Source: a virus
DNA length: 40,647 nt
UHGV virus genome: UHGV-0183130
Reading direction: 5' to 3' (one strand)
The notes under the pieces: model-generated
Told to the model about the DNA's origin: nothing
Seen by the model: only the letters and a program-made list of their open reading frames with translations
Database searches by the model: none
Part shown: positions 7,276 to 31,465 of the stretch, one piece after another
How positions within the stretch are numbered: position 1 is the first letter of the stretch
How the letters are laid out: every line of letters begins with the position of its first letter
Program-made: the position numbers and the translations under genes

Positions 7276-8031
7276 TCAACTCCTGATCAGGGATGTGCCA
7301 GGGAAACCACCGAACGGCAACTCGTTCCCCTCGCCATGCCTCAATTTGCACGCGGTGAGCGTGCCGTTACATTCATCGCGCGAAGGATCGGTAACAGGAT
7401 TATTAAGTTTGTCGAAATAGCGAGTTCCGGCGTAGTCACAACCATCACCGGAGCGGTATTTGTTACGGATGCACCAGGTACAAAGCGAATGTAACTGGCG
7501 CGTCGGGATCATCAGCCCCTGCAGGTCCATCGGACTGGACAACGTAAACGCCACCACCTCGTTGGTTTCAGTGCTCTTGGCGTCTATGTAAAACACCTTC
7601 AGCTTTTCCTGCTGAGGATCCCCAGACGGGTTGCCCTCCGGATAGTTTTTCGCATCCAGATACTGCGCCAGTGTGTCATGAATGGTGACCTTTGCCTGCA
7701 GCAGGTCATCATAAGCAAGACACAGCGCCGTAATGGAACTATCCAGGTTAGCGACCGAGAGCGTTGGCTGCGCACTGGTCCCGTCGGTCGCAGTCTCAAT
7801 TCCCTCTATCTGGCAGGGCCAGGCTTTATATTCCTGCCCCTGCCACCAGATCGATTTCGCCGGTAGCTTATTTTCATCTCCACCAGCAGCGGCAATTTCA
7901 TCGGGAGTGTGGGCAATATTGTGGGCGTGGAAGCGGAGAACGTCGGAAACACCAAATGCGGTGCCATCGACATCAAAAAGCCGGACAACATTGCCCGGCT
8001 CAAGTTTCTGATAATCACTGTTTAAGCTCAT
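7276..8031 (-). CDS. L: Minor tail protein L
   Basis: 251 aa; C-terminal cysteine cluster (CTWCIRNKYRSGDGCDYAG...CNGTLTACKLRHG) like lambda gpL; position between M and K. Confidence 0.85.
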   Translation of the reverse strand: MSLNSDYQKLEPGNVVRLFDVDGTAFGVSDVLRFHAHNIAHTPDEIAAAGGDENKLPAKSIWWQGQEYKAWPCQIEGIETATDGTSAQPTLSVANLDSSITALCLAYDDLLQAKVTIHDTLAQYLDAKNYPEGNPSGDPQQEKLKVFYIDAKSTETNEVVAFTLSSPMDLQGLMIPTRQLHSLCTWCIRNKYRSGDGCDYAGTRYFDKLNNPVTDPSRDECNGTLTACKLRHGEGNELPFGGFPGTSLIRS

Positions 8032-8375
8032 GGTGCAAACGCCTGTTCAAAGGTGGCTGATACGGTTTCCACTGTTTTACTTTTGGTGACGCGCTGCAGG
8101 CTTTCTGCCTCAACGCGCCACAGCGCAAGATCACCGCCTGGCGGGGTAAACGAAAATGATTTCGTCTTATGGCGCCGCAGGAAAGCATAAATATCCCGGA
8201 CGGTTTGCGGTTCGCCGGTAAATGAAAACTCATAACTTAGCGTTTCATCATTCAGCCCGGCACCTGAAACCTGCTTATAGCCATCACCAAACTGCGCCGT
8301 ACGGACGGTATCCTTACTTTTCAGGGTCGGCTGGCTGGATGCTTTAATCCGCCACGCAAAATGCTCGATCGCCAT
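8028..8375 (-). CDS. M: Minor tail protein M
   Basis: 115 aa, lambda gpM size and position immediately after the tape measure gene. Confidence 0.8.
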   Translation of the reverse strand: MAIEHFAWRIKASSQPTLKSKDTVRTAQFGDGYKQVSGAGLNDETLSYEFSFTGEPQTVRDIYAFLRRHKTKSFSFTPPGGDLALWRVEAESLQRVTKSKTVETVSATFEQAFAP

Positions 8376-8378
8376 TGC

Positions 8379-10895
8379 TTACCTCTGTTTTGTTGCATTC
8401 CAGATAATGCCTCCGGGTCGGACCTCTCTGGTGATACCTTCCCTGATGGAACTGTTGATCACCTGCTGATAGGCTTTCCCCAGCGCATCGCCGTTTCCTT
8501 TCTGCTGACCGGAATCCCCCTGGCCTGTTGTAACCGAAACCGGTGCATACACGCTGACACCAAAAGGAGAAGCAACGCCAGCGCCACTCCCCCCGACCAG
8601 GCCACCAGTCGCATAACCACGCATCATGCGATAAAGGTTGCCGACACCGATTCGGTTGGTGGCTTCCTGCGTAAAGACAAACTCTCCACGGTGCACCACA
8701 CCTGCAGGCTCATACTTACCGCCGGTCCCGGTAAAACCACCGCCAGCAAAACCCAGCGCAGAAGTGGCAGAACTGACCAGGCCAGCCATGGCCTGCTTCA
8801 TCAGGATCTGCGTCAGCATCGACAACGTGGAACGGGTGAAATCTGCCCAGTTTGCTTTCCCAGTCGTCAGCATATCGGCCATATTCTGGCTGATACCATC
8901 GAATGTGGCTGAAGCAGCGGACTTCATCGAACCATAGGCATCAGCTGCTGAATCGGCATAGTCAGCCCACGCTGATTTCGCCCCGGCCTGCCAGTTGCCA
9001 CGTAGCTCGTCCTGCGCGGCATAATATTTCTTCAGTGCATCCAGTTCGTTCTGATAACCCTGATCGGTGTCCGTACCGCCGGCATTCATCCAGCCCTGCC
9101 GCAGCTGTGCCTCTTCGTTTTGCCGCTGCGCGCCGCGACTGCTCATGCTGCCCCCGGCCACAAGCGCTCGTGTTTTCTCCCCAATCTGGGTAACGTACTT
9201 CTGCGAGCTGTCCTGCAGGCGGTTTAACCGTTCCTGGGCAACAATCTGATCGCCCAACCGGGCATTCACTTCGGCCCGCGCCAGTACCTCGTCTTTGTTC
9301 GCCAGCACCGATTTTTCATCGGCGGTCAGCGCGCGCTTTTTGGCGGCCTCTTCCAGCACCGAAAAGCGGGATTGCTGTTTCCACAATTCCAGCCGCTGCT
9401 GGCTGATGGTATCCGTGATGCTCTTATGCTCCTGCAGAGTGCGTAACTGCGCCTCCAGCTCCAGCGTCTGTGCGCTGGCAGTATCGACACTTTTTACACC
9501 TGCAGGTGTTTTTACCGCTGAAGGGGCTTTGGGTTTCTTCAGCGAGTCGTCGTATTCTTTTTTCGCAGCTTCCAGATTGATGTTGTAGTCAGCCTGGAGG
9601 ATCCGTCCGTCTTTCAGCGCCTTGTTCAGTTCATTCTGACGGGCCGTGTACTTCTCCAGCGCAGTCTGCGTCTTTGCATAATTCGACTGCGCCTGCGCGG
9701 CATACTTCTGGCGGTCAGATTCAATCACTGCCTCGCGGGCGGCGTTATCCTCAGTGGCCTTTGCCACACTGGCCTGCTGCTGAGCCATTTCCAGTGCAAG
9801 GCGGGCAGACTCCCGATCGTTCCAGTAGCTGGCGCGCGCATCATCATTGACATAAGAATCACCTTTACGCAGATTCCAGATTTCATCCGCCCGCTTAAAG
9901 GCCGCTTCCGCTTTGGCAACCATCTCCTGCGTGGTGTCAGGCCGCCCAATATCGAGCGCCGCATCCCACATCGATTTAAAGGCACGCTTCAGGCTGTCGG
10001 CAGCAGTCTCAATCGACCCCATATTGTCGCGCAGGCTCTTTGTCTGTTCGCGAAAACCGTTCGTCGCCGCATCATTAGCTGCCTGTAGAGCCCCGGCCTC
10101 ATCCCCGGCACGCTGCAGTTGCGCCACATAAGCAATCTGTTCCGCGGTAACGTTGTGGAACTGTTGCGCCATAGCAATAAGGCCTGAAGTCGGATCATTC
10201 GTCAGTTTGCCAAATGCCGCTGCCACCTTGTCGACCGGCACGCCCGACGCATCGGTGAACTTCGCTACCGCCTGACTCATCTCATCGAACCGGGCACCGG
10301 CACGCACTCCGGCGTTGACCAGCTCCGTCAGCGCGCTGCTGGTCTGGTTAAACGTGAGTCCCGCCTGCTCGCCGGATTTCGCCAGCACCAGCATGCGGTT
10401 TGAGGTCAGCCCGGCAGTGTTACCGGACAGGACCAGCGTTTTGTTGAAATCAGACAGCGTGGACGAGCCCTGATACCAGGCGTAAACCACCGCTCCAGTG
10501 GCGGCAGCCAGCGCGCCAACACCTACCATCACCGGCGATATGGTGCCCAGCAACGCCCGAAAGGTCGGAATAATACCGCCGAAGGAGTCTTTCACCTGAC
10601 CGCCCTGCTGCAGCAGGATAAGCCACGGACTCTGCCCACCGGCCAGCTGGGTGGCAATATCCGTAAACTGCGCAGGCAGCATACGCATCGCCGCGTTGTA
10701 CTGTCCTACAGAAATGCCGGCCTTCTTCGCGGCGCTCTCCTGGCGGGTAAATGACTGCTGCACCTTCAGCGCCGAGTCATTCGCTGCGTCACCCGTCTGC
10801 TTAAACTGCCTTTTTACGTACTCCATCTGCTCGTTGAACTTTGACGAATTAACGTCAAGGTTAACGACCAGGTCACCCACTGCCGTCTGGGCCAT
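8379..10895 (-). CDS. H: Tail length tape measure protein H
   Basis: About 838 aa; start moved to ATG 10895 (MAQTAVGDLVV, SD AGGAGG), paralleling lambda gpH MAEPVGDLVV; many conserved blocks (AGISVGQY..AAMRMLPAQFTD..QSPWLILLQQGGQVKDSFGG). Confidence 0.9.
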   Translation of the reverse strand: MAQTAVGDLVVNLDVNSSKFNEQMEYVKRQFKQTGDAANDSALKVQQSFTRQESAAKKAGISVGQYNAAMRMLPAQFTDIATQLAGGQSPWLILLQQGGQVKDSFGGIIPTFRALLGTISPVMVGVGALAAATGAVVYAWYQGSSTLSDFNKTLVLSGNTAGLTSNRMLVLAKSGEQAGLTFNQTSSALTELVNAGVRAGARFDEMSQAVAKFTDASGVPVDKVAAAFGKLTNDPTSGLIAMAQQFHNVTAEQIAYVAQLQRAGDEAGALQAANDAATNGFREQTKSLRDNMGSIETAADSLKRAFKSMWDAALDIGRPDTTQEMVAKAEAAFKRADEIWNLRKGDSYVNDDARASYWNDRESARLALEMAQQQASVAKATEDNAAREAVIESDRQKYAAQAQSNYAKTQTALEKYTARQNELNKALKDGRILQADYNINLEAAKKEYDDSLKKPKAPSAVKTPAGVKSVDTASAQTLELEAQLRTLQEHKSITDTISQQRLELWKQQSRFSVLEEAAKKRALTADEKSVLANKDEVLARAEVNARLGDQIVAQERLNRLQDSSQKYVTQIGEKTRALVAGGSMSSRGAQRQNEEAQLRQGWMNAGGTDTDQGYQNELDALKKYYAAQDELRGNWQAGAKSAWADYADSAADAYGSMKSAASATFDGISQNMADMLTTGKANWADFTRSTLSMLTQILMKQAMAGLVSSATSALGFAGGGFTGTGGKYEPAGVVHRGEFVFTQEATNRIGVGNLYRMMRGYATGGLVGGSGAGVASPFGVSVYAPVSVTTGQGDSGQQKGNGDALGKAYQQVINSSIREGITREVRPGGIIWNATKQR

Positions 10896-18713: not shown

Positions 18714-20635
18714 TATTCATCTCCAGATAATGCCCGGGCATAATCAGCCAGGGTTTTGTTATTGGTCCGGCTCCCCTCTTCCTCCTGCAGGCTCGCGAGC
18801 AGTGAATCAAGATTCAGTTGCCATCGCGAAATACTGATCCGCAGGGCCGCCAGCGCATAAACGAAGCAGTCCAGCGCTTCATTTCGTCGCTTTTTGCTGT
18901 CCCAGACGATTTTCTTACGCCCGTCCACCCATTTTTCAACCTGCTCCTCAGCAGTCAGTTGCTGAGCCTCAGCCAGATCGTAAATTTCGGGGTTATTGGG
19001 AAAATGCACGGCTCCGGCAAGAGGTTCACTCCCTTCCGGCTGAAGTGTGAAGCGGTTATAAATCTGCTCCTTTGCGGTATCAGTCCCCACTTCCGTCAGA
19101 TAAACGCCGTTCTTGTTGCGTTTACGCGGCATATTCGCGACGGGCTTACCGTAAACGGAAGCCCCTTTAATCGGGATCACGCGAAACAGGCCATGCTTTT
19201 TTGAGCGATTGTAGACAATGGTCGGGTCAATACCGCCGATATCCCAGCAGATACGGGATACCGACATTTCCACGCCATTCTTTCGGGAGTAGGTTTTGTT
19301 AATCGCCTCGTCCACCCTGACGAGGGTCGCTTCATCATCATGACGGCCCATAATGATTTGCCGGTCAATCAGCCAGCTTTCCTCTCCGGGTCCCCATCCC
19401 CAGACGCGCATTTCATATCGATCCAGCTGGGAGTCAATCCCGGCTGTCAGATAAGCAACACGATCCGGTACGGATGCCCCGAAAAACTCTTTGCGTTCGG
19501 CCATGAGCTCCGCGTCAGGCCGTTCACCAATTTTAGGCTCCCATGTTTCGCCCAGCGTAGTGTTCACGAAGGTTTTACGCTTTCCGGTATCCCCTTTCGT
19601 TTTTAGCCAGTCTTTGACGATCTGTACCCAGGTGGTAAATGGGCTGTATGCCGTCCAGATGTGAAACGTCACGCTGTCCGGCGGGTCGATTTCTGTGCCT
19701 GTTGATGAAAACCAGGATAAACCATCGCGCGTCCAGATCCCGGTGGTGTCGCAGATGTAACGAGCTTCAGTGAAATCCAGCTCCTGCTGCTTAATGACGC
19801 AGGCATTATGTTCACACAGGTAAAAGACGCTGGAGGGTTCGCCCGGTGTCCATTTGAACCCGAACGGGGTTTCTTTGTCGCCGAACTTAAGGTACTGCTC
19901 TTCACCACAGTGCGGACAGGCAACATGAAAGCGCATGAAATGCCCGGACTCGCTGGCAGCACGCTCAATCTGGCAGGTCCCCTTTGTTTTTGGCGTTGAG
20001 CCACGAATAGATTTAGGCCAGACAGAGCCCTCAATACGTTTATCACCCAGAAACGTCGGGGAACCCTCTTTCTCAATATCCTCATCAAAAGCAGCGAGTT
20101 CGTCATAGCCGGCAACATCCACTGACTTTTCGCGATAGTTTTTCGCCGCCTTACCCCCCAGACACCAGAACCCGCGACCGTTGGAGAAGCGTTTCATACT
20201 GAGCGTATTGTCCCGGTGCTTTTTGCCATACCAGGGGGCCAGCGCCAGAAGTGACGGAATATCACGGATCGTGGGTTCAACATGCGACTTCATGAAGTTT
20301 TCGGCGTCACCATCCGTGGGCAGCCAGATAAGGGAATTTCGCTGCTTGTGCTGTATAAAATACGCATAAACACCCAGCAACATTTTTGAATAGCCAACAC
20401 GGGCAGACTTAACAACGTTAACTTCACGAATGTAGTCGTTACCCATCGCATTCATGATCGCGCGCTGAAATGGCAATGTTTCCCAGCGCCCTTCCTGGTA
20501 GGCCGACTCTTTGGGGAGATAGTAATTATCGTCTGCCCATTCAACCGCCGTTTGCGGCTCAGGTCGGTACAGCGAAAGTAGACCCGCGCGCGCAGAGTGC
20601 TGCAGCCCCTTAACCTGACTGTTCGATATATTCAC
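18713..20635 (-). CDS. A: Terminase large subunit A
   Basis: 640 aa starting MNISNSQV (GTG start overlapping Nu1, as in lambda); extensive near-identity to lambda gpA blocks. Confidence 0.9.
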
Positions 20636-21155
20636 TCAGCAACCCCGGTATTATTTCATCCAGCGCAGCTGCTTTGTTCATGGCTTTAATGATGTCCTTC
20701 TTGAGGAAATCAATATGTCGGTTTTCCAGCTCCGGGAAGCGCCGCTGAACAGACAGAGCAACTCCATCAAGAATGCTGGCTACTTCTCCGGCCATCCGCG
20801 ACAGCACGAACGTGCAGAATGCGGTTTCCACCACCTCAGCGGAATCTTTTGCATTTTTTAGTTCCTGGGCGTCAGCCTGTGCCCGGGTGAGGCGATGACG
20901 CTCATAGTCAATCGTACCAGGCTGAAGGTCGGATTCCGATGCAAGACGAAGGTCTTCCACCTCCTTCCGTAATTTCTCATTCTCAATCGCCGCGTCGCGT
21001 GCGGAATACCATTCAATAGCCGCGGAAGATTCATAGAGGACCTCATTACCTTTTCCGCCGCCACGTGCTACAGGCATTCCCTGATCCTGCCAGTTCTGAA
21101 TGGTTCGCACGCTGACCCCAAATATTTCAGAAAGACGCTTTTTGTTGACCTCCAT
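20610..21155 (-). CDS. Nu1: Terminase small subunit Nu1
   Basis: 181 aa MEVNKKRLSEIFGVSVRTIQNWQDQGMPV..., close to lambda Nu1 along its length. Confidence 0.9.
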   Translation of the reverse strand: MEVNKKRLSEIFGVSVRTIQNWQDQGMPVARGGGKGNEVLYESSAAIEWYSARDAAIENEKLRKEVEDLRLASESDLQPGTIDYERHRLTRAQADAQELKNAKDSAEVVETAFCTFVLSRMAGEVASILDGVALSVQRRFPELENRHIDFLKKDIIKAMNKAAALDEIIPGLLSEYIEQSG

Positions 21156-21159
21156 AGCT

Positions 21160-21400
21160 CACTCCATGCACAAAAACAGAGAAAGGAAACGCCCTCTGGC
21201 TATTTAGCCGTTTTTAAGGCTTATCATTTCCTTTCTTTTCAGGGGGTGTTTACAGTTAAAACAATGAATTAGCGAGAAGAAGAACGGAAACGGCAAATGC
21301 CTGAAAATTTTCATAAATAGCGAGAATCTGCGCGGTCGCCGCCCCGTAACGGAGCGGATCGCTGGAAAGGACCCGCAAACGATAATAAATATCAATTTCA
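21160..21400. other. cos site (cosB - cosN - cosQ), lambda type
   Basis: Reverse complement of 21300-21344 reads GGGCGGCGACCGCGCAGATTCTCGCTATTTATGAAAATTTTCAG, close to the lambda left end; 12-nt cohesive-end equivalent at 21333-21344; cosB-like sequence toward Nu1 and cosQ-like GCGGGTCCTTTCC...GTTACG on the other side. Confidence 0.8.
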
Positions 21401-21496
21401 CAATTCGATTTATAAGCTATCCCTATAATGATTCTCTTAGCGTATGCACAATTAAATGGGCACATCACATTTAGTGCCCTTAGGTTTTCTTCTAGA

Positions 21497-22000
21497 TTAC
21501 TTTGCTTTAAGAACGCTTTTTGATTCTTTAACTAAATCTTCCAGAAGTTTATTTGTCAACGATAAGAGATGTTCTTCAGCATCATCTGTATCTAACCCCT
21601 GAAAATTAACTTCATAGTCAACCTTATCTTCTCGTTTCAAATAATCAGTTAGAAGTTTTGATACTGATTCAGTAACCAGCAAGGGGCCGATATTGCTATA
21701 TTTTACTATTAAATCTTTTGCCTCAGCAGCTGAGATTTGTAATTTACTAAGTTTCTCAGCACTCAATTTGATAAAGTTTGGATATTCATCTGGACCTAAT
21801 CGTTGATACTCTTTCAAATCAGAATAATAATCTTGTAGAACCTTTACCTGATAAATTGCATTAGTTAATTCAATAAGGGCCCCTGCTCTCTTCTCCCACC
21901 ACTTTTCACTATAAAAACGTTTTAAAGCAAATAACATTGCAATCCATGCACCAAGTCCACCCGCTACTACAGAGATCACTAATTGGTAAATATAATTCAT
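21497..22000 (-). CDS. Hypothetical membrane-anchored protein, AT-rich cargo gene
   Basis: 167 aa, N-terminal hydrophobic helix IYQLVISVVAGGLGAWIAMLFAL then a charged helical region; SD GAGG before ATG; local GC roughly 35-38 percent versus about 52 percent in phage core. Confidence 0.5.
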   Translation of the reverse strand: MNYIYQLVISVVAGGLGAWIAMLFALKRFYSEKWWEKRAGALIELTNAIYQVKVLQDYYSDLKEYQRLGPDEYPNFIKLSAEKLSKLQISAAEAKDLIVKYSNIGPLLVTESVSKLLTDYLKREDKVDYEVNFQGLDTDDAEEHLLSLTNKLLEDLVKESKSVLKAK

Positions 22001-22420
22001 GATAGCCTCGCATATTTATACTGTGACTATTCTGCATGATTTTGACTAATCAGTACATATCAACCATTCTTTCCGGATGACCGCGCTAATGATATCGAGA
22101 CAATCCCTACAGATTAGTCTGCTCCCTATGGAATTTTTCTCTTCCACATTTCCTTCAGTACAGGGGGAGTTATTGTGCATTATCTCAGGCGCTCAGTGAA
22201 TGCCTCTGTAATGGCAGCCTGTGTAACAAACAACCTACCGTTCAATGGCTGAGCGACCTGCTATCACGATGGCAGTCATCATGGAAAAACCCCATATTTT
22301 CTATAATTAATAAGAAAATCATGACATAAGTCATTGAAATACTGATTGCTCATTGTAACTTGGATTTATCTCCCCACTTCCCTATTGCGCTATTGTTGGC
22401 GTAATTAGGAGAAGCTATAA

Positions 22421-22846
22421 ATGACTGGTAAAACAATTAATCTGCAATTTGATGGGTATTGGCGTGAAGCCAATAAGAGTGGCGTTCCAGATCAGTCAGG
22501 AATCTACTGCGTATACGCATGCAAAGCTGTTACTAATGGCTCCAAGACAACACTCGAAATTCGTAAGTTGATTTATATCGGCGAATCATCGAACGTCCGA
22601 TCCCGTGTGGCCACGCACGACAGGCTGGGTGACTGGAATGAACATTTAATGGTCGGTGAGACTCTCTGCTATTCCGTCGCTACTATTACTGGAAAAGATG
22701 ATCGGGTGCGCGCAGAAGCTGCATTGATTAACAAAATGACTCCCCCTGCAAATAGCGAGTATACGGGTGAATTCCCTTACAACGAAACCACTGTTAACTG
22801 CTCTGGGGAAACTTCGCATTTGCTTTCCACATTAACCGTTGGTTAA
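22421..22846 (+). CDS. Putative GIY-YIG-like nuclease domain protein
   Basis: 141 aa; SGIYCVY ... KLIYIGESSNVRSRVATH ... RVRAEAALINKMTPPAN fits GIY / YIG / Arg / Glu / Asn motif order, though the GIY-YIG spacing is longer than canonical. Opposite strand to flanking late genes. Confidence 0.45.
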   Translation: MTGKTINLQFDGYWREANKSGVPDQSGIYCVYACKAVTNGSKTTLEIRKLIYIGESSNVRSRVATHDRLGDWNEHLMVGETLCYSVATITGKDDRVRAEAALINKMTPPANSEYTGEFPYNETTVNCSGETSHLLSTLTVG

Positions 22847-22880
22847 CTCTTTAAAATGGCTGGCTAAGTCTAGCGGCCAT

Positions 22881-23042
22881 TCACTTCAAACATTGCTGCC
22901 TGATGTAATCCTGTAAGTAACTCACTTGCCCGGTGATGGTGCTGATTCGCTCTCTGAGGGTGAAATAATCCCGTTTAGCGGCGTCAGTAAGTCGGGGGCT
23001 ATTGCCATCATCCTTACCGATGATATTGTCTGTTTCACTCAC
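22881..23042 (-). pseudogene. Remnant of an Rz (i-spanin) 3' end
   Basis: In-frame minus translation [43 protein letters not shown] matches the Rz C-terminus; about 54 bp at 22945-22998 is a near-repeat of 24061-24114 inside the intact Rz; no N-terminal part. Confidence 0.55.
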
Positions 23043-23165
23043 TCAGTAGTTAGTATGGTTCTGCATTGTCCCTTCACTAATGTCGTGCTGCGATGTAATT
23101 TCACGGAGGGCCATCACTCCGGCACAGTACGCCGCCCCGATGACCTCCCAGTCCGGCTTGCTCAT
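23043..23165 (-). CDS. Small ORF (40 aa) with HTH-like sequence resembling terminase small-subunit N-termini; possibly a gene remnant
   Basis: MSKPDWEVIGAAYCAGVMALREITSQHDISEGTMQNHTNY; AGGA-type SD upstream; ends with stop directly followed in frame by the Rz remnant. Confidence 0.3.
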   Translation of the reverse strand: MSKPDWEVIGAAYCAGVMALREITSQHDISEGTMQNHTNY

Positions 23166-23251
23166 GCTTCTTTCCTATTAAAGTAATCCCATTGATGACC
23201 TATGGTAAGACGGAAGTAAACCTGTCATCTATGCTACCGAGGAGATTCTCG

Positions 23252-23440
23252 ATGGACGAAACAATTACTGAAAATGCTATTAAGCAAGCATATAGCGTTA
23301 CCATCATGCAGCTTTTTAATGTCTATCTAAATTCAGCAAACGATCCCAACGCATCAGCAAGATTTCAGGAAGGGCTTCGTCTTGCGATACAAGTCCGAGA
23401 TGCCTGCTTGCAAATCGCCTCCCAAAACCATGCGCCATGA
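23252..23440 (+). CDS. Hypothetical small protein (AT-rich cargo)
   Basis: ATG with GAGGAG SD; 62 aa; first of three tandem same-strand small ORFs; 4-nt overlap with next ORF. Confidence 0.3.
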   Translation: MDETITENAIKQAYSVTIMQLFNVYLNSANDPNASARFQEGLRLAIQVRDACLQIASQNHAP

Positions 23441-23685
23441 ATTCATTAGCGGCCTATTCAAAAACTACCATTACGATGGGTCTGCCCATGGTTATGGCAA
23501 CGCAGAAAGGTAATAGAATAAGAGTTAATCCCCTGACCTTACCAAACCAGCGGCCCACCCTAATTAGCTCGATTACTTTGAATACAACTTTTGTGTTTAG
23601 GCAACCTCAAAAATCATACAAACATATCACCCACGCTGATAAAAAAACAATCCAAAATAAAATCTCATTTACATCACTGGAGTAA
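23437..23685 (+). CDS. Hypothetical small protein (AT-rich cargo)
   Basis: 82 aa ORF overlapping the previous stop (ATGA); no recognisable family. Confidence 0.25.
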   Translation: MNSLAAYSKTTITMGLPMVMATQKGNRIRVNPLTLPNQRPTLISSITLNTTFVFRQPQKSYKHITHADKKTIQNKISFTSLE

Positions 23686-23690
23686 CAACC

Positions 23691-23936
23691 ATGCCTAACT
23701 GTGAACTTTTAACCGAAACCGGCGTTGATAACTTTGCCATTGTTATCAAATTTCTATCAGAAAACAACCTTATAGATGAAGCAGTTAATTATTTAAAAAA
23801 CAATGGCCATACAAATATTAGAGTCAGCATCGAAGCTGTTGAAGACATACAGAAATTCTTATCCGAAAAATATCCATCATCCTCATCAAGCAAAGCTGAT
23901 GCCATAATTAATTGCAGTCATAGCCATTGCAGTTAA
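23691..23936 (+). CDS. Hypothetical small protein (AT-rich cargo)
   Basis: 81 aa ORF with GGAG SD; acidic, Ser-rich C-terminus; no recognisable family. Confidence 0.3.
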   Translation: MPNCELLTETGVDNFAIVIKFLSENNLIDEAVNYLKNNGHTNIRVSIEAVEDIQKFLSEKYPSSSSSKADAIINCSHSHCS

Positions 23937-23996
23937 TTACTAACGCTATGCCAACTAATATTGAATAACTAATCAGACAGCGAAATAGGTGACAAG

Positions 23997-24461
23997 TCAT
24001 TTTAAATTCTGCGCACTGACATATTCTTGTAATCCGGCAAGTTGCTTGGTGACAGTTTCTATTCGCTCTCTGAGAGTGAAATAATCCCGTTGAGCGGTGT
24101 CAGTAAGTCTGGGGCCGGTTGCATCATCCATGCTGGCGGTGTCGGTGGTTTGACGCACTTTATTGCAGGCGGCTGCAACGCGCAGCTGCTTGCGCCCAGA
24201 CTCAACATCGCCACGTAGACCGCTAATGGTGTTTTTCGCATCAGCTAACTCCTTCGTATATTTGGCATCCAGTGCAGCGACATCGCGCTGGCGGGTTTGC
24301 ATGTCGGTGATAGTAACGTTAGCTAGGCTGAGCTTTTCAGTTGCTTTGTTGCGTTGGTCTTTGTAGGTGATCGCGTTGTCGCGGTAGTGGTTAACGGCCC
24401 AGCCTAGAGATAAGATTATGCAGATGATCACAGTAATGATGATGTTTGTTAGTCGACTCAC
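23997..24461 (-). CDS. Rz: Spanin inner-membrane subunit Rz
   Basis: 154 aa; [16 protein letters not shown]...[20 protein letters not shown] parallels lambda Rz; GTG start overlapping endolysin stop. Confidence 0.85.
24059..24241 (-). CDS. Rz1: Spanin outer-membrane lipoprotein Rz1, embedded in Rz in +1 frame
   Basis: 60 aa with signal peptide and lipobox (LGASSC), proline-rich [17 protein letters not shown] and C-terminal TPLNGIIS, as in lambda Rz1. Confidence 0.75.
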
Positions 24462-25006
24462 CGGTCAATCCCCCAGCACGTCAGCGCACTTTCTTGATCG
24501 CGCCGCTCGACCTGCCCATAGCACCCATTTTTCTGGCCTTTGGTCAGACGACAGTCGCGGCCGCCGTCTTTAATCCACCAGCGGATCGCTTCACAGGCGC
24601 CTTTACGGTCACCAGCGTTAATGCGCTTATAGAACGTAGAAGGGAAACATTTTCCGGGGCCGATGTTGTAAGGACAAAATGACGCAATACCCGCTTTCTG
24701 TGGTTCGGTCAGTGGTACTTTGATATTTCGCTCAACCCACGCCAGCGCCTTGTCGCGTTCTATGGCGTTCACCTTGGCGCATTTCTCAGCAGACAGCTTC
24801 ATGCCCTGAACTACTGGCTTACCATCAACCATCGTGGCGCCACGGCAAATAGTCCAGATTCCGCCGCCGTCGCGATATGCTGTCAGGCTGTTACCCTCTT
24901 TCTCATCCAGAAACTGATCGAGAATCACGGGCGCGGAAGCCCCCGCAAGAATCAAACCAACGACCGCTGCGCTCAGTTTATTCTTCAGCTTTGGTGGCAT
25001 AGCCAT
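24458..25006 (-). CDS. Endolysin, T4-lysozyme family (GH24) with N-terminal signal-anchor-release-like segment
   Basis: Gly/Ala-rich weakly hydrophobic N-terminus [19 protein letters not shown] then E-x8-D-x5-T catalytic spacing ([16 protein letters not shown]); resembles phage 21-type SAR endolysins. Confidence 0.8.
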
Positions 25007-28318: not shown

Positions 28319-28705
28319 TCAGGCGGCTGCACCCGCCGGTTCATATCTGCTGATCGTTATCTCTACCCGACCTTTCGGCACTACGGGTCCCCATTCCACC
28401 AGCATGCGCTTAATCTGGCTGTCGTCTTCCCAGACACCCGCATGCGTCAGCGCGTCAAACAGGGCTTTGTTGTAATTATCGATATCCCGGCGGCGCGCAT
28501 CCGGCGGGTACAGAGTGATTTCTACCGCTGCCAGTTCAGTCGATGGCTTCGGGAGACGTCGTAATTGCTCAATGATCGCCACGCAGGCAGCGCTCTGGTA
28601 TTTACGGCCATCAGCGCTAATGAGGTGACGACCGGCCAGCGGCCCCTTGTTAGGGGCGCGCCAGTAGGTGTTCACGCTCGGAGGGAACGGGAGCACAAGT
28701 TTCAT
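28319..28705 (-). CDS. rusA: Holliday junction resolvase RusA
   Basis: Start at ATG 28705 (SD AGGAGG): MKLVLPFPPSVNTYWR ... DARRRDIDNYNKALFDALTHAGVWEDDSQI parallels E. coli RusA. Confidence 0.75.
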   Translation of the reverse strand: MKLVLPFPPSVNTYWRAPNKGPLAGRHLISADGRKYQSAACVAIIEQLRRLPKPSTELAAVEITLYPPDARRRDIDNYNKALFDALTHAGVWEDDSQIKRMLVEWGPVVPKGRVEITISRYEPAGAAA

Positions 28706-30591
28706 GCCACCTCCTGATGTTGCACTGCACACAGTTCCGGAAGATTTGCCTCCACCAGCGCCCTGGCGAATGGTGGTGGTACCGCATTACCACAGCGGGC
28801 TACCTGCTTATCTTTTGCATAGCGATTTCCACGGTAGTCCTGATCAATAACGTATCCATCCGGGAAGCCCTGCGCTTTGTAGAGTTCATGCGGCTGCAAC
28901 ATGCGCATTCCGATATCAACGATCTGGTATTTAACCCCATCGATCGTTACCAGCCATTCATCGTCACTTTCCCCGCAATACGTCTCGAGAAATGTGCGTA
29001 CCTCACCCACGTGTTGGCCACCAGAGGTGATTGTTGGCATGGGCACATCAAGACGTTGCCCGTCGCGGCATGTTCCACGCAGTTTCACCAAATGAGAGGC
29101 AACAACCGCATGATGATCGACAGTGGTCACTGAGTGTGCGGGTTCATCCATACTGACACCCGGTCCCGTATAGTTACCGCCGTAGTGTTTAGCCAGAAAC
29201 GCGCCCACCAATTGTGATTTACCTCCACCACCAGCTGTAATTGTGGCGCTCGGTTCGTCTGCCCGGTGGCCGACGCTGGCCCCAAACTGGCGGGCTATCA
29301 CTGGCGCAACAAGACAGGCGCGGGATTGCTTCATAATGGTATGAGCAGGTTTATCCAGCGGGCGCGGTTTAGCCTGGTATTCACTACCACCATTACCCGC
29401 CAGGAATGGCGTCAGTGCAGCCTCAACAATCCCGAGTGCATGCCCATTCCCACCCGGGCGTTTTGACGTGCCAGCGGTTACCGTCGGGACAGGTTCGGTA
29501 ACGGGCTGCCCGGTTGCCCCAGTGCGGAATTTTGTCAGGTGTGGAACAGCTAACGCGTAACCGTGGGTTTTAGTAATAGTTTGCAAAGGCTCGTCCAGCT
29601 TCTGACCACGGAAACAGTCGTAACTCGTTTTGGTGCTGGTGTGATTGCACTTCACGATAAACGGCGACGCACTTTCGATAACAAAGCGCTGTATGCCGCG
29701 CGCGATCCGCTTCAGCGTGTTCTCCGCCAGCGTTTTTTTGCGGTCGAAGATGGACAGGGCCGGAACATTCCAGTCGATACATTCCGCAGCGGTACGCCAT
29801 GGCATCAGCCTGCCGCTCTGCACCTCCAGAGACTTAGGATCCCCATGGGTAACTGCAGGCCACTGGATTGGGCAGCCATCGCAGCGCATAACCATGAAGA
29901 AGCGTTTGCGGATCGTCGGCGCGCCGTAATCACACGCGCGTAGTTCGCGATAATCAACATCATATCCAAGCCCATCCACCAGCTTTTGCGCCTGCTCGCT
30001 ACCTCTTTCGATAGACAGAAACTCACAAACCTCAGCCAGTGCCGGGTGATCAGCAGGAATACCAGTGGATAGCATGCCGACAAATGCCTCAAATGTTTCA
30101 CCAGCTCGTGCCGGATCCGGACGCTGCGCATCATAAGGCGGTATAACTGGGCCAACAAATGCAGCCAAATCATCCCCCACCAGATTGGGATTTTGTGGCT
30201 CAGCTGGTAATAGCGGTCCCCACGTTTTGAACTCTTCCACGTTCTCCAGCATCATCACGCGCGGTCGCTTTGCCAGTGCCCAACGCAGAACAATCCAGGC
30301 CAGACCGCGTATCTCTTTTTTCACAGGCTTGGCGCCTTTTGCCTTCGAGAAGTGTCGGCAGTCCGGGCTAAACCATGCCAGGCCGACAGGATTACCTCCG
30401 GTGGCGGCTACCGGATCCACGTCAAATACGGATTCGCAGTAATGCAGTGTTTCCGGGTGATTCGTCTTGTGCATCGCAATGGCGTTTTCGTCGTGGTTGA
30501 TCGCAATATCCACGCTGCGTCCGATCGCCAGTTCAATACCCGTTGATGCGCCACCGCCACCAGCAAAGTTATCAACGATAATCTCACGCAT
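28702..30591 (-). CDS. DNA (cytosine-5)-methyltransferase, orphan, with large extra region
   Basis: 629 aa; motif I-like DNFAGGGGASTG, PC-motif-like SPDCRHFSKAKG, ENV motif (MLENVEEF); no adjacent restriction endonuclease candidate. Confidence 0.7.
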   Translation of the reverse strand: MREIIVDNFAGGGGASTGIELAIGRSVDIAINHDENAIAMHKTNHPETLHYCESVFDVDPVAATGGNPVGLAWFSPDCRHFSKAKGAKPVKKEIRGLAWIVLRWALAKRPRVMMLENVEEFKTWGPLLPAEPQNPNLVGDDLAAFVGPVIPPYDAQRPDPARAGETFEAFVGMLSTGIPADHPALAEVCEFLSIERGSEQAQKLVDGLGYDVDYRELRACDYGAPTIRKRFFMVMRCDGCPIQWPAVTHGDPKSLEVQSGRLMPWRTAAECIDWNVPALSIFDRKKTLAENTLKRIARGIQRFVIESASPFIVKCNHTSTKTSYDCFRGQKLDEPLQTITKTHGYALAVPHLTKFRTGATGQPVTEPVPTVTAGTSKRPGGNGHALGIVEAALTPFLAGNGGSEYQAKPRPLDKPAHTIMKQSRACLVAPVIARQFGASVGHRADEPSATITAGGGGKSQLVGAFLAKHYGGNYTGPGVSMDEPAHSVTTVDHHAVVASHLVKLRGTCRDGQRLDVPMPTITSGGQHVGEVRTFLETYCGESDDEWLVTIDGVKYQIVDIGMRMLQPHELYKAQGFPDGYVIDQDYRGNRYAKDKQVARCGNAVPPPFARALVEANLPELCAVQHQEVA

Positions 30592-31465
30592 GGGTTACCC
30601 CCTGCATGCTGCCGACAAGACCACGCGCAATTGTGATAATTTCGCTGGTGGCCGTTCGTTCCAGCCAGAGTTGATTGATGTTGGCTTTCAGCTTGTTCTG
30701 CTGAGCCTCACTCAATACGTCAACGCCTTCCACCTGGTTAAACACCAGACCAACCTCGAGAGGCCAGATACGTGACTCAGTTTCCGATGGTATGACTGGC
30801 TCCTGGGGTGCTCGCATTGCAATTGTCGGCTCTTTGCCAACAGCGAATTGAGCCAGCGCCATAAATGCCCGACCTTTTGCCTCCAGTTCTGTGCGGTTGA
30901 TATAGCTGAACCGCTCACCACGCCATGACTTATCGAATACAGCTATGGCACCGGCAAAAAACGCGCTGGTGGGCTTCTGTTTTTCGTCAGCAGGTACAAA
31001 CCACACTGGCAGATCGAACCCAATGCGCCCGCGAATGAATACAATGTGATCGGCATCTTCCGGCCACCACGTTTCACTTGGCGCGGCTTTTATCAGGAAT
31101 ACATAGCGACCGCCCTTCTCGCACTGGGCTGCTGCGTACTTCATGATGTGCGTCATACCAGTGATCGCCTGTTTCTCGTGGTACTGCGAACGGCTATACG
31201 GTGGGTTGCCATAACCTGCGCCACCCAGTTCTGCCAGACGTTCAGACCAGTCCTGGGTCAGCGCGTTATCTTCGGCGGTGTACCATGCCGGGCATTTCGC
31301 GTTGTCGTCGTCAGCAAACAAATCCAGAACTAATGGACCAAATAGCGCGTTGATCCCCCAAAACAGCAGATCCGGTGTTCGCCACTGATCGCCAACTTCT
31401 TTCAATTCGTGAGCTGGTTTACTGCGCAGTTCTGCCAGCGACTGGCAATATTTATTTGGCATCAT
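30584..31465 (-). CDS. Phage-type DNA N6-adenine methyltransferase (Dam-like), orphan
   Basis: 293 aa; catalytic NPPY motif (GYGNPPYSRSQ); overlaps downstream MTase start by 8 nt. Confidence 0.65.
   Translation of the reverse strand: MMPNKYCQSLAELRSKPAHELKEVGDQWRTPDLLFWGINALFGPLVLDLFADDDNAKCPAWYTAEDNALTQDWSERLAELGGAGYGNPPYSRSQYHEKQAITGMTHIMKYAAAQCEKGGRYVFLIKAAPSETWWPEDADHIVFIRGRIGFDLPVWFVPADEKQKPTSAFFAGAIAVFDKSWRGERFSYINRTELEAKGRAFMALAQFAVGKEPTIAMRAPQEPVIPSETESRIWPLEVGLVFNQVEGVDVLSEAQQNKLKANINQLWLERTATSEIITIARGLVGSMQGVTHA

Follow-up and report, generated by a model that had tools for sequence, protein, structure and literature searches.

A stand-alone GIY-YIG nuclease with an extended hairpin, encoded antisense to the late operon of a Citrobacter prophage: a candidate immune nuclease

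We examined if an open reading frame lying among the late genes of a prophage encodes a GIY-YIG nuclease or only resembles one, and what a nuclease encoded at that position might do. The window, i.e., the whole stretch of DNA that was analysed (40,647 nucleotides; UHGV virus genome UHGV-0183130), had been read beforehand from its letters, and the original prediction for this frame was a stand-alone GIY-YIG-like nuclease that might be a divergent member of the group or might only resemble it. The frame had been placed exactly and is a real gene, running from an ATG at 22421 to a TAA at 22844-22846 and preceded by a ribosome-binding sequence:

22421..22846, + strand: coding sequence of the stand-alone GIY-YIG nuclease, 141 aa
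22407..22411, + strand: Shine-Dalgarno sequence AGGAG, 9 nt 5' of the ATG, read from the sequence

The genes on both sides of the frame are read from the - strand, in keeping with its description as antisense to the late operon: a Nu1-like small terminase (20610-21155) and the large terminase on one side, and Rz (23997-24461) and lysozyme (24458-25006) on the other. Bases 21200-21345 match bases 1-146 of phi80, which contain the phi80 cohesive end; from this match and the flanking genes the window is a lambdoid prophage with its late operon reading from right to left. A 100% identical protein is encoded by Citrobacter braakii prophages, and on each contig examined (8 places shown) its gene has this position in the prophage. 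Two features define the surroundings of the gene:

21346..23996, no strand assigned: low-GC accessory (moron) region of 2.65 kb, from the resident Rz stop to the phi80-like cos
22881..23042, - strand: remnant of an Rz spanin gene (C-terminal 51-53 residues), 55% identical to the resident Rz C-terminus

The GC content is 33-47% within the accessory region, which holds the nuclease gene plus other small ORFs, and 51-55% in its flanks. The nuclease gene is an accessory gene (moron) situated between Rz and cos on the strand opposite to the late operon; of the features expected of a moron it shows the inter-module position, the opposite strand, the low GC and conserved flanks, while the hairpin after the stop codon has no T-run and no convincing sigma-70 promoter was found. 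The position, the opposite-strand orientation and a GC content lower than the flanks are shared with lambda bor, which occupies the equivalent position between Rz and cos, and with other Rz-cos morons. Bor is an outer-membrane lipoprotein, whereas the product encoded here is predicted to be a cytoplasmic nuclease. The Rz remnant is convergent with the nuclease gene, 35 bp from its stop, and is 52% identical to an intact Rz at the equivalent position in locus L123, where the Rz gene converges on the nuclease gene from 39 bp away; the remnant was called as PF03245 in locus L008. It resembles a recombination scar carried along with the cassette, whose acquisition would then have involved recombination within Rz.

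Three further small ORFs lie in the accessory region. The one between the nuclease gene and cos (21497-22000, - strand) encodes 167 aa with an N-terminal TM helix and a helical body, matches PHROG 17948 (unknown function) with an E value of 7e-21, and accompanies the nuclease in all of the Citrobacter prophages; it was considered as a conserved partner and rejected, being not homologous to the 166-aa ORF at the same Klebsiella site. The ORFs at 23192-23440 (+ strand, 82 or 62 aa) and 23691-23936 (+ strand, 81 aa), between the Rz remnant and the resident Rz, had no family match and were called as genes in related contigs (L001); they are probably further morons.

The residues expected of a GIY-YIG enzyme were found in the predicted order, i.e., G27-I28-Y29, Y52-I53-G54, R62, H66, E99 and N111, and the order is conserved across 30 aligned relatives. 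Within that alignment no sequence departs from Y29, Y52, G54, E55, R62, H66 or N111, and at least 90% of the sequences have E99, so that the catalytic Arg and Glu, for which an alignment had been proposed as a check, are both intact. The GIY and YIG motifs had been judged to lie about twice the canonical distance apart, and they do: 23 residues separate the GIY Tyr from the YIG Tyr, compared to 10 in T. maritima UvrC (Y19, Y29) and 11 in E. coli UvrC (the T. maritima residue numbers Y19, Y29, Y43 and N88 were taken from PDB titles of point mutants). The double spacing is a longer beta1-beta2 hairpin, extending over residues 27-56, with GIY on the strand formed by residues 27-39 and YIG on the strand formed by residues 42-56. 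An hhalign comparison with the N-terminus of E. coli UvrC, used here as supporting evidence only, placed 12 extra residues within the hairpin, and it paired GIY with GVY, YIG with YVG, R62 with R42, and H66 with Y46. After the hairpin the register is that of UvrC, the distances Y52-H66 (14) and H66-N111 (45) being identical to Y29-Y43 and Y43-N88 in the T. maritima protein.

Structure prediction, the other check proposed, gave an AF2 model (pLDDT 95, pTM 0.88) in which the GIY-YIG core is present as an alpha/beta fold with a three-stranded sheet flanked by helices. Fold comparison agreed, with figures of 8.3 for the UvrC N-terminal domain, 7.8 for T4 EndoII, 6.9 for the GrxS16 N-terminal domain, 6.8 for Eco29kI, 6.5 for I-TevI and 5.1 for PD-T4-3, and Foldseek returned GIY-YIG agreement from both PDB and viral models. 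The protein is a single compact domain, as the term stand-alone had implied, with no further Pfam domain and no fused DNA-binding module. Its subfamily is marked by the hairpin with its 12 additional residues, by a conserved N-terminal strand bearing an FDGYWRE motif and by a conserved C-terminal PPxNxEY segment that is followed by two strands. Three cysteines of strands beta1 and beta3 (C30, C34 and C83) show little or no variation within the family, which is unusual for GIY-YIG domains; they may form a metal or redox site or may simply pack in the core.

Sequence profiles recognised the protein poorly. Pfam PF01541 scored 18.9 bits against a gathering cut-off of 22.6, with residues 48-106 alone aligned, and a few of the relatives do exceed that threshold; a PHROG "endonuclease" match had an E value of 0.004, and the NCBIfam model for excinuclease Cho (E 0.002, 17 bits vs a cut-off of 367) covered the GIY-YIG core alone. 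A profile search of PDB sequences gave no true match except for a motif-level one to the GrxS16 N-domain, and PDB relatives were recognised by fold comparison only. The sub-threshold Pfam score and the unusual GIY-to-YIG spacing would both be expected if the resemblance were due to chance, or if the ORF were an inactive relic that is not a functional nuclease. Against this, the hairpin insertion accounts for the low score, since it keeps the profile from aligning the GIY strand, the predicted GIY-YIG fold is confident, and the protein is conserved over its full length across phyla (37-68% identity) without loss of any catalytic residue; we regard chance resemblance or decay as extremely unlikely. 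The choice left by the original prediction is settled by the fold and the catalytic residues in favour of a divergent but complete GIY-YIG member; neither a predicted structure lacking the core nor an alignment lacking the catalytic residues, the findings that would have spoken against it, was obtained. It is nearly certain, in our estimation, that the gene is real and forms an accessory cassette running antisense to the late operon, and that its product has a GIY-YIG nuclease fold in which the active site is intact.

The family to which the protein belongs is large. A word-index search with the protein gave 207 matches, and an exhaustive profile search gave 1,101 cluster representatives at E <= 1e-3, 728 of them at E <= 1e-10. 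Cluster representatives from many phyla are 37-68% identical to the window protein, and for the best 150 of the 1,101 nearly all lengths fall between 135 and 160 aa, with alignment from end to end. Genome scans located relatives of 37-66% identity in Proteobacteria, Firmicutes, Bacteroidota, Acidobacteriota, Planctomycetota, Actinomycetota and Nitrospirota, as well as on plasmids of Cyanobacteria and in two Thermoplasmata MAGs. Given so many phyla and such high identity, these genes have probably spread horizontally while under strong purifying selection. At closer range a metagenome scan found 1 identical copy, the rest being distant; E. coli genomes gave no DNA match, and in the phage collection the cos and Rz flanks alone matched known phages. 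The few long relatives have TPR or pentapeptide repeats beside the nuclease, or no recognisable domain; these may be gene-calling fusions, and domain fusions were dropped as a hint to function. The protein is a complete single-domain GIY-YIG nuclease, predicted to cleave DNA, of an uncharacterised and horizontally spread subfamily whose roughly one thousand protein clusters range from Proteobacteria to Firmicutes, Acidobacteria and some archaea. Pfam misses it at the curated threshold, and current defence-finding models miss the nuclease family. No paper on a long-hairpin GIY-YIG family was found in the literature; NCBI already names the protein "GIY-YIG nuclease family protein", a generic label, and for that reason the novelty is modest.

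A perfect TATAAT about 110 bp upstream of the gene had been proposed as its own promoter, near 22305-22310. The following features were found around the gene:

22302..22307, + strand: TATAAT hexamer, 114 bp 5' of the ATG; no -35, at chance frequency, not conserved
22328..22339, + strand: conserved upstream box AAGTCATTGAAA, from the alignment of upstream regions
22377..22414, + strand: predicted leader hairpin in which CUUCCCUA is paired with the Shine-Dalgarno region; -18.9 kcal/mol, z = -5.2
22855..22881, no strand assigned: hairpin 9 nt 3' of the stop, AATGGCTG ... CGGCCATT; -12.4 kcal/mol, z = -3.1

The hexamer does exist, 3 nt from where it had been placed, but its reading as the promoter of the gene did not hold up. 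The best -35 available to it (ATCATG, at 18-nt spacing) has 2/6 matches; the + strand of the 40%-GC, 2.8-kb stretch has 3 TATAAT hexamers where about 2 are expected per strand, and the hexamer is not kept in the upstream regions of relatives. Neither a consensus scan nor a relaxed scan upstream of the nuclease gene gave a credible sigma-70 -35/-10 pair. The hexamer may still act as a promoter, but nothing in the sequence singles it out. About 95 bp of upstream DNA travels with the gene in Enterobacterales, including the AAGTCATTGAAA box (conserved among the upstream regions aligned, i.e., those of the window, L103, L020, L024 and L009) and ATTGCGCTATTGTTGGCGT at 22384-22402. The block conserved with the nuclease gene is 22328-22402 and is distinct from the TATAAT. 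The AAGTCATTGAAA box, at which the travelling DNA starts, includes TTGAAA, which could be a -35-like hexamer.

The inner 6-bp stem of the leader hairpin, GCGCUA (22387-22392) with UGGCGU (22397-22402), is kept in 9 Enterobacterales relatives with G-U pairs and one compensatory pair (Serratia L129), whereas the outer stem that hides the Shine-Dalgarno sequence is strong in the window and weak or absent in relatives (partly kept, 5-9 leaders). Judged by the folding predictions, the hairpin may mask the ribosome-binding site and so damp translation of the nuclease. The hairpin after the stop has no T-run on the + strand, a TTTT following it on the - strand, and it was not listed by a terminator scan; equivalents occur in L009 and L103. 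Rfam, run across 21100-24100, found no known RNA family.

The same arrangement recurs in other phages. At least seven Enterobacterales prophage backbones with unrelated packaging modules have the nuclease gene, in antisense orientation, at the junction of lysis genes and small terminase (the window plus L001-8, L009-12, L017, L123, L125, L127 and L129); the flanking packaging genes are, besides those of the window:

Klebsiella prophage: Terminase_2/6N, nuclease antisense between lysis genes and small terminase
Enterobacter prophage: ParB/TAGT/Terminase_2, nuclease antisense between lysis genes and small terminase
Metagenomic phage: DUF2280 small terminase, nuclease antisense between lysis genes and small terminase
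Pectobacterium prophage: GpA, nuclease antisense between lysis genes and small terminase
Metagenomic prophage: DUF1441, nuclease antisense between lysis genes and small terminase
Serratia prophage: Nu1/GpA, nuclease antisense between lysis genes and small terminase

The leader, the post-stop hairpin and the 3' end of the Rz gene travel with the nuclease gene in Enterobacterales. The P2-like Ralstonia phage RsoM1USA was the sole isolated phage with the nuclease among 50,697 phage records, and there the gene is antisense between the tail genes gpS and gpV. For annotation, the lysis-to-terminase junction of enterobacterial prophages is to be recognised as a repeated host of the nuclease cassette. 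A gene for an Acb2/Tad1-hairpin protein (an anti-CBASS/anti-Thoeris sponge) adjoins the homologue in a Klebsiella prophage (L009 6866-7150, - strand) and in a Serratia prophage (L129 5455-5736, - strand), and so the junction appears to hold both putative defence and anti-defence cargo.

The recurrent position and the wide horizontal spread would both be explained if the gene were a free-standing homing endonuclease, i.e., a selfish gene whose product cuts phages that lack it near the lysis/terminase junction and which is then copied in by repair. The same intergenic position is occupied in unrelated phages, the nuclease is very well conserved across phyla, and a fragment of Rz was transferred along with it, as co-conversion of flanks predicts. 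But the flanks vary (Nu1, Terminase_2, ParB/TAGT, DUF2280, DUF1441, P2 gpS/gpV), which leaves no common target gene for homing, and many copies are chromosomal, outside of phages, or within cassettes of the CapH/CapP type described below. The gene also has its own conserved leader, and its product is one 141-aa domain without a NUMOD, IENR1 or HTH module, its relatives being almost all of the same size; the linker-joined C-terminal DNA-binding modules of the GIY-YIG homing endonucleases (I-TevI, Seg, Mob) are absent from it. We consider homing unlikely.

We surveyed the neighbours of the homologues by calling ORFs in 85 non-redundant homologue loci and clustering them. Recurrent upstream of the nuclease, on the opposite strand, were an HTH protein and an M78 (ImmA/IrrE) peptidase: among the 137 upstream ORFs scanned, Peptidase_M78 was found in 14 and HTH_3 in 12, and PADLOC assigned capP to 14 (best E 2.4e-63) and capH to 10 (best E 5.5e-27) of these same ORFs. 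By phmmer a CapP-like gene was present in 15/85 homologue loci, always upstream and divergent. These 15 loci are from Acidobacteriota, Latescibacterota, Nitrospirota, Bdellovibrionota, Myxococcota, Bacteroidota, and Alpha- and Gammaproteobacteria, and in most of them the nuclease is the sole gene of the divergent unit. The relatives at CapH/CapP loci are 40-51% identical to the window nuclease, and two GACGAnnTCGTC palindromes lie in the intergenic region shared by capH and the nuclease gene. The cassette, in the order capP < capH < | > GIY-YIG, is exemplified by L026 (6635-8477) and was also seen in L034, L051, L055, L061, L081 and others; it occurs in several phyla with varied flanking contexts, has an intergenic region of about 125 bp, and one GACGAnnTCGTC overlaps a TTGACG box.

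CapH is a repressor that is cleaved by the CapP peptidase upon the appearance of ssDNA from DNA damage, and CBASS and other immune operons are under CapH/CapP control (bioRxiv 10.1101/2022.04.27.489752; 10.64898/2026.05.16.725639). In at least 15 homologue loci the architecture is that described for CapH/CapP targets (bioRxiv 10.1101/2022.04.27.489752), with operator-like palindromes; the term "GIY-YIG" was absent from the text of the CapH/CapP papers checked. Unlike these operons, the copy in the window lacks both a CapH/CapP neighbour and a partner gene, so that the link to immunity is by homology and applies to the family, not to the window copy. Other neighbours of homologues were DarT/DarG, Abi_2/AbiD, type III R-M, Hachiman helicase, PD-T7-4 and AbiJ-AAA, and one homologue locus had a patatin-like gene nearby. 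Downstream of the homologues nothing was conserved in the 85 loci beyond a synteny in Halomonas. In Halomonas spp. (L083, L085, L090, L093, L100, L101; approximately 8001-9670) a homologue of about 40% identity overlaps the start of a T2SSE-type ATPase gene by 1-4 bp, in the order ABC-F gene, homologue, T2SSE ATPase, YkuD transpeptidase; this is a stable, chromosomal and operon-like locus, unlike the mobile contexts seen elsewhere.

From the CapH/CapP and defence-gene neighbourhoods of the family, we infer that the most likely role of the nuclease is that of an immune effector. The Halomonas context, which is not defence-island-like, speaks against such a role. The CapH/CapP neighbourhood also fits a role in repair, because CapH and CapP resemble the Deinococcus DdrO/IrrE pair that controls DNA-repair genes and sense ssDNA arising from damage (bioRxiv 10.1101/2022.04.27.489752). 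The protein could thus be a DNA-damage-inducible repair or recombination nuclease, Cho/UvrC-like or Slx1-like, that processes damaged or branched DNA of the host or of the induced prophage, and this would be in line with the stable Halomonas locus, with the weak excinuclease Cho match, and with the UvrC N-terminal domain being the top structural match. That domain (T. maritima 1ycz; also E. coli UvrC/Cho) has the same register of YIG-Tyr, Arg, Tyr/His, Glu and Asn, but UvrC and Cho, as large repair proteins of several domains, depend on UvrB, whereas the window nuclease stands alone, with a hairpin 12 residues longer, a His in place of UvrC Y43, and extra N- and C-terminal strands. It ends at residue 141, the UvrB-interacting region and the C-terminal EndoV-like/HhH domains being absent, and it has no second nuclease domain or partner gene. 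The distribution of the family is patchy across species, in prophages, plasmids and islands and not at core repair loci, and its neighbours are often defence genes. A repair function seems to us rather unlikely.

T4 endonuclease II (DenA, 2wsh) is likewise a stand-alone, phage-encoded GIY-YIG enzyme of about 135 aa, although its sequence is only 20% identical to that of the window nuclease. EndoII acts during the lytic cycle of a virulent phage, whose DNA is modified. The nuclease of the window might, as EndoII does, serve the lytic cycle by nicking or degrading host or competitor DNA, or it might be an anti-defence factor, with which the adjoining Acb2/Tad1-type genes in the Klebsiella and Serratia prophages would agree. 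Unlike EndoII, however, it is encoded by a temperate phage with unmodified DNA and no obvious self-protection, and in all phage contexts seen its gene runs against the late operon, whose transcription would oppose its expression; the family, moreover, is mostly found in cellular genomes, with the one isolated phage mentioned above. We judge a lytic-cycle or anti-defence function very unlikely.

A GIY-YIG nuclease is the sole or main immune effector of PD-T4-3, PD-Lambda-1/SNIPE and Uzume, often on mobile elements (bioRxiv 10.1101/2024.10.26.620412; PMC13190303). PADLOC gave no match of the window protein to the models of these three; its only match was to the candidate PDC-S14 (19 bits, motif-level, residues 42-78). 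PD-T4-3 is larger (248 aa), and SNIPE has a TM segment and DUF4041, whereas the window nuclease has no TM segment, DUF4041, sensor or anchoring domain. The GIY-YIG type II restriction enzymes (Eco29kI, Hpy188I) differ in turn, as no cognate methyltransferase is adjacent to the window nuclease. Two overlapping DNA methyltransferase genes are present at 28702-31465 (- strand), of 629 aa (C5 type) and 293 aa (Dam-like), the types being assigned by positional identity with locus L004; they are about 6 kb from the nuclease gene and are absent from the prophages L003 and L007, which carry the identical nuclease. A restriction-modification reading was rejected because the methylases are distant and are not co-inherited with the nuclease. 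The protein falls outside the homing, UvrC/Cho, restriction, PD-T4-3, SNIPE and Uzume families.

The confirmed part of this account, a GIY-YIG nuclease moron in a prophage, is ordinary, and such novelty as there may be would lie in the candidate immune role and the link to CapH/CapP. Taken as a whole, the explanation that the gene is a GIY-YIG nuclease moron that acts as a prophage-borne immune nuclease has, we think, an even chance of being correct. The orientation of the gene bears on how this might work: since late transcription runs antisense through it, the nuclease would most likely be expressed from the prophage in the lysogen and not during lytic growth, and this step is drawn from orientation only. 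Translation may be kept low by the leader hairpin hiding the ribosome-binding site. The nuclease would then cut DNA via the usual one-metal GIY-YIG mechanism (Tyr/Arg/His/Glu/Asn), and its target could be the DNA of an invading phage (superinfection exclusion) or, upon strong induction, the cellular DNA in an abortive response. The more specific proposal is that of a new single-gene anti-phage effector which is switched by CapH/CapP in chromosomes and carried as an antisense moron in temperate phages, directed against the DNA of superinfecting or induced competitors with the leader hairpin limiting its level; this we advance tentatively, as somewhat less than an even prospect. Were the immune role true, the gene would be among the smallest nuclease-only defence genes known, and the CapH/CapP regulon would gain a new class of cargo. 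The family would also offer a compact model for how a nuclease consisting of the domain only discriminates self from non-self.

A different setting of the homologue was seen in MAGs of Oscillospiraceae and other Eubacteriales (L013, L015, L036, L037; approximately 3950-8080 in L013), where it is located between a large serine recombinase and a 503-aa protein for which no family match was found. The trio of recombinase, homologue and 503-aa protein recurs in different surroundings, which suggests that it is a small mobile unit.
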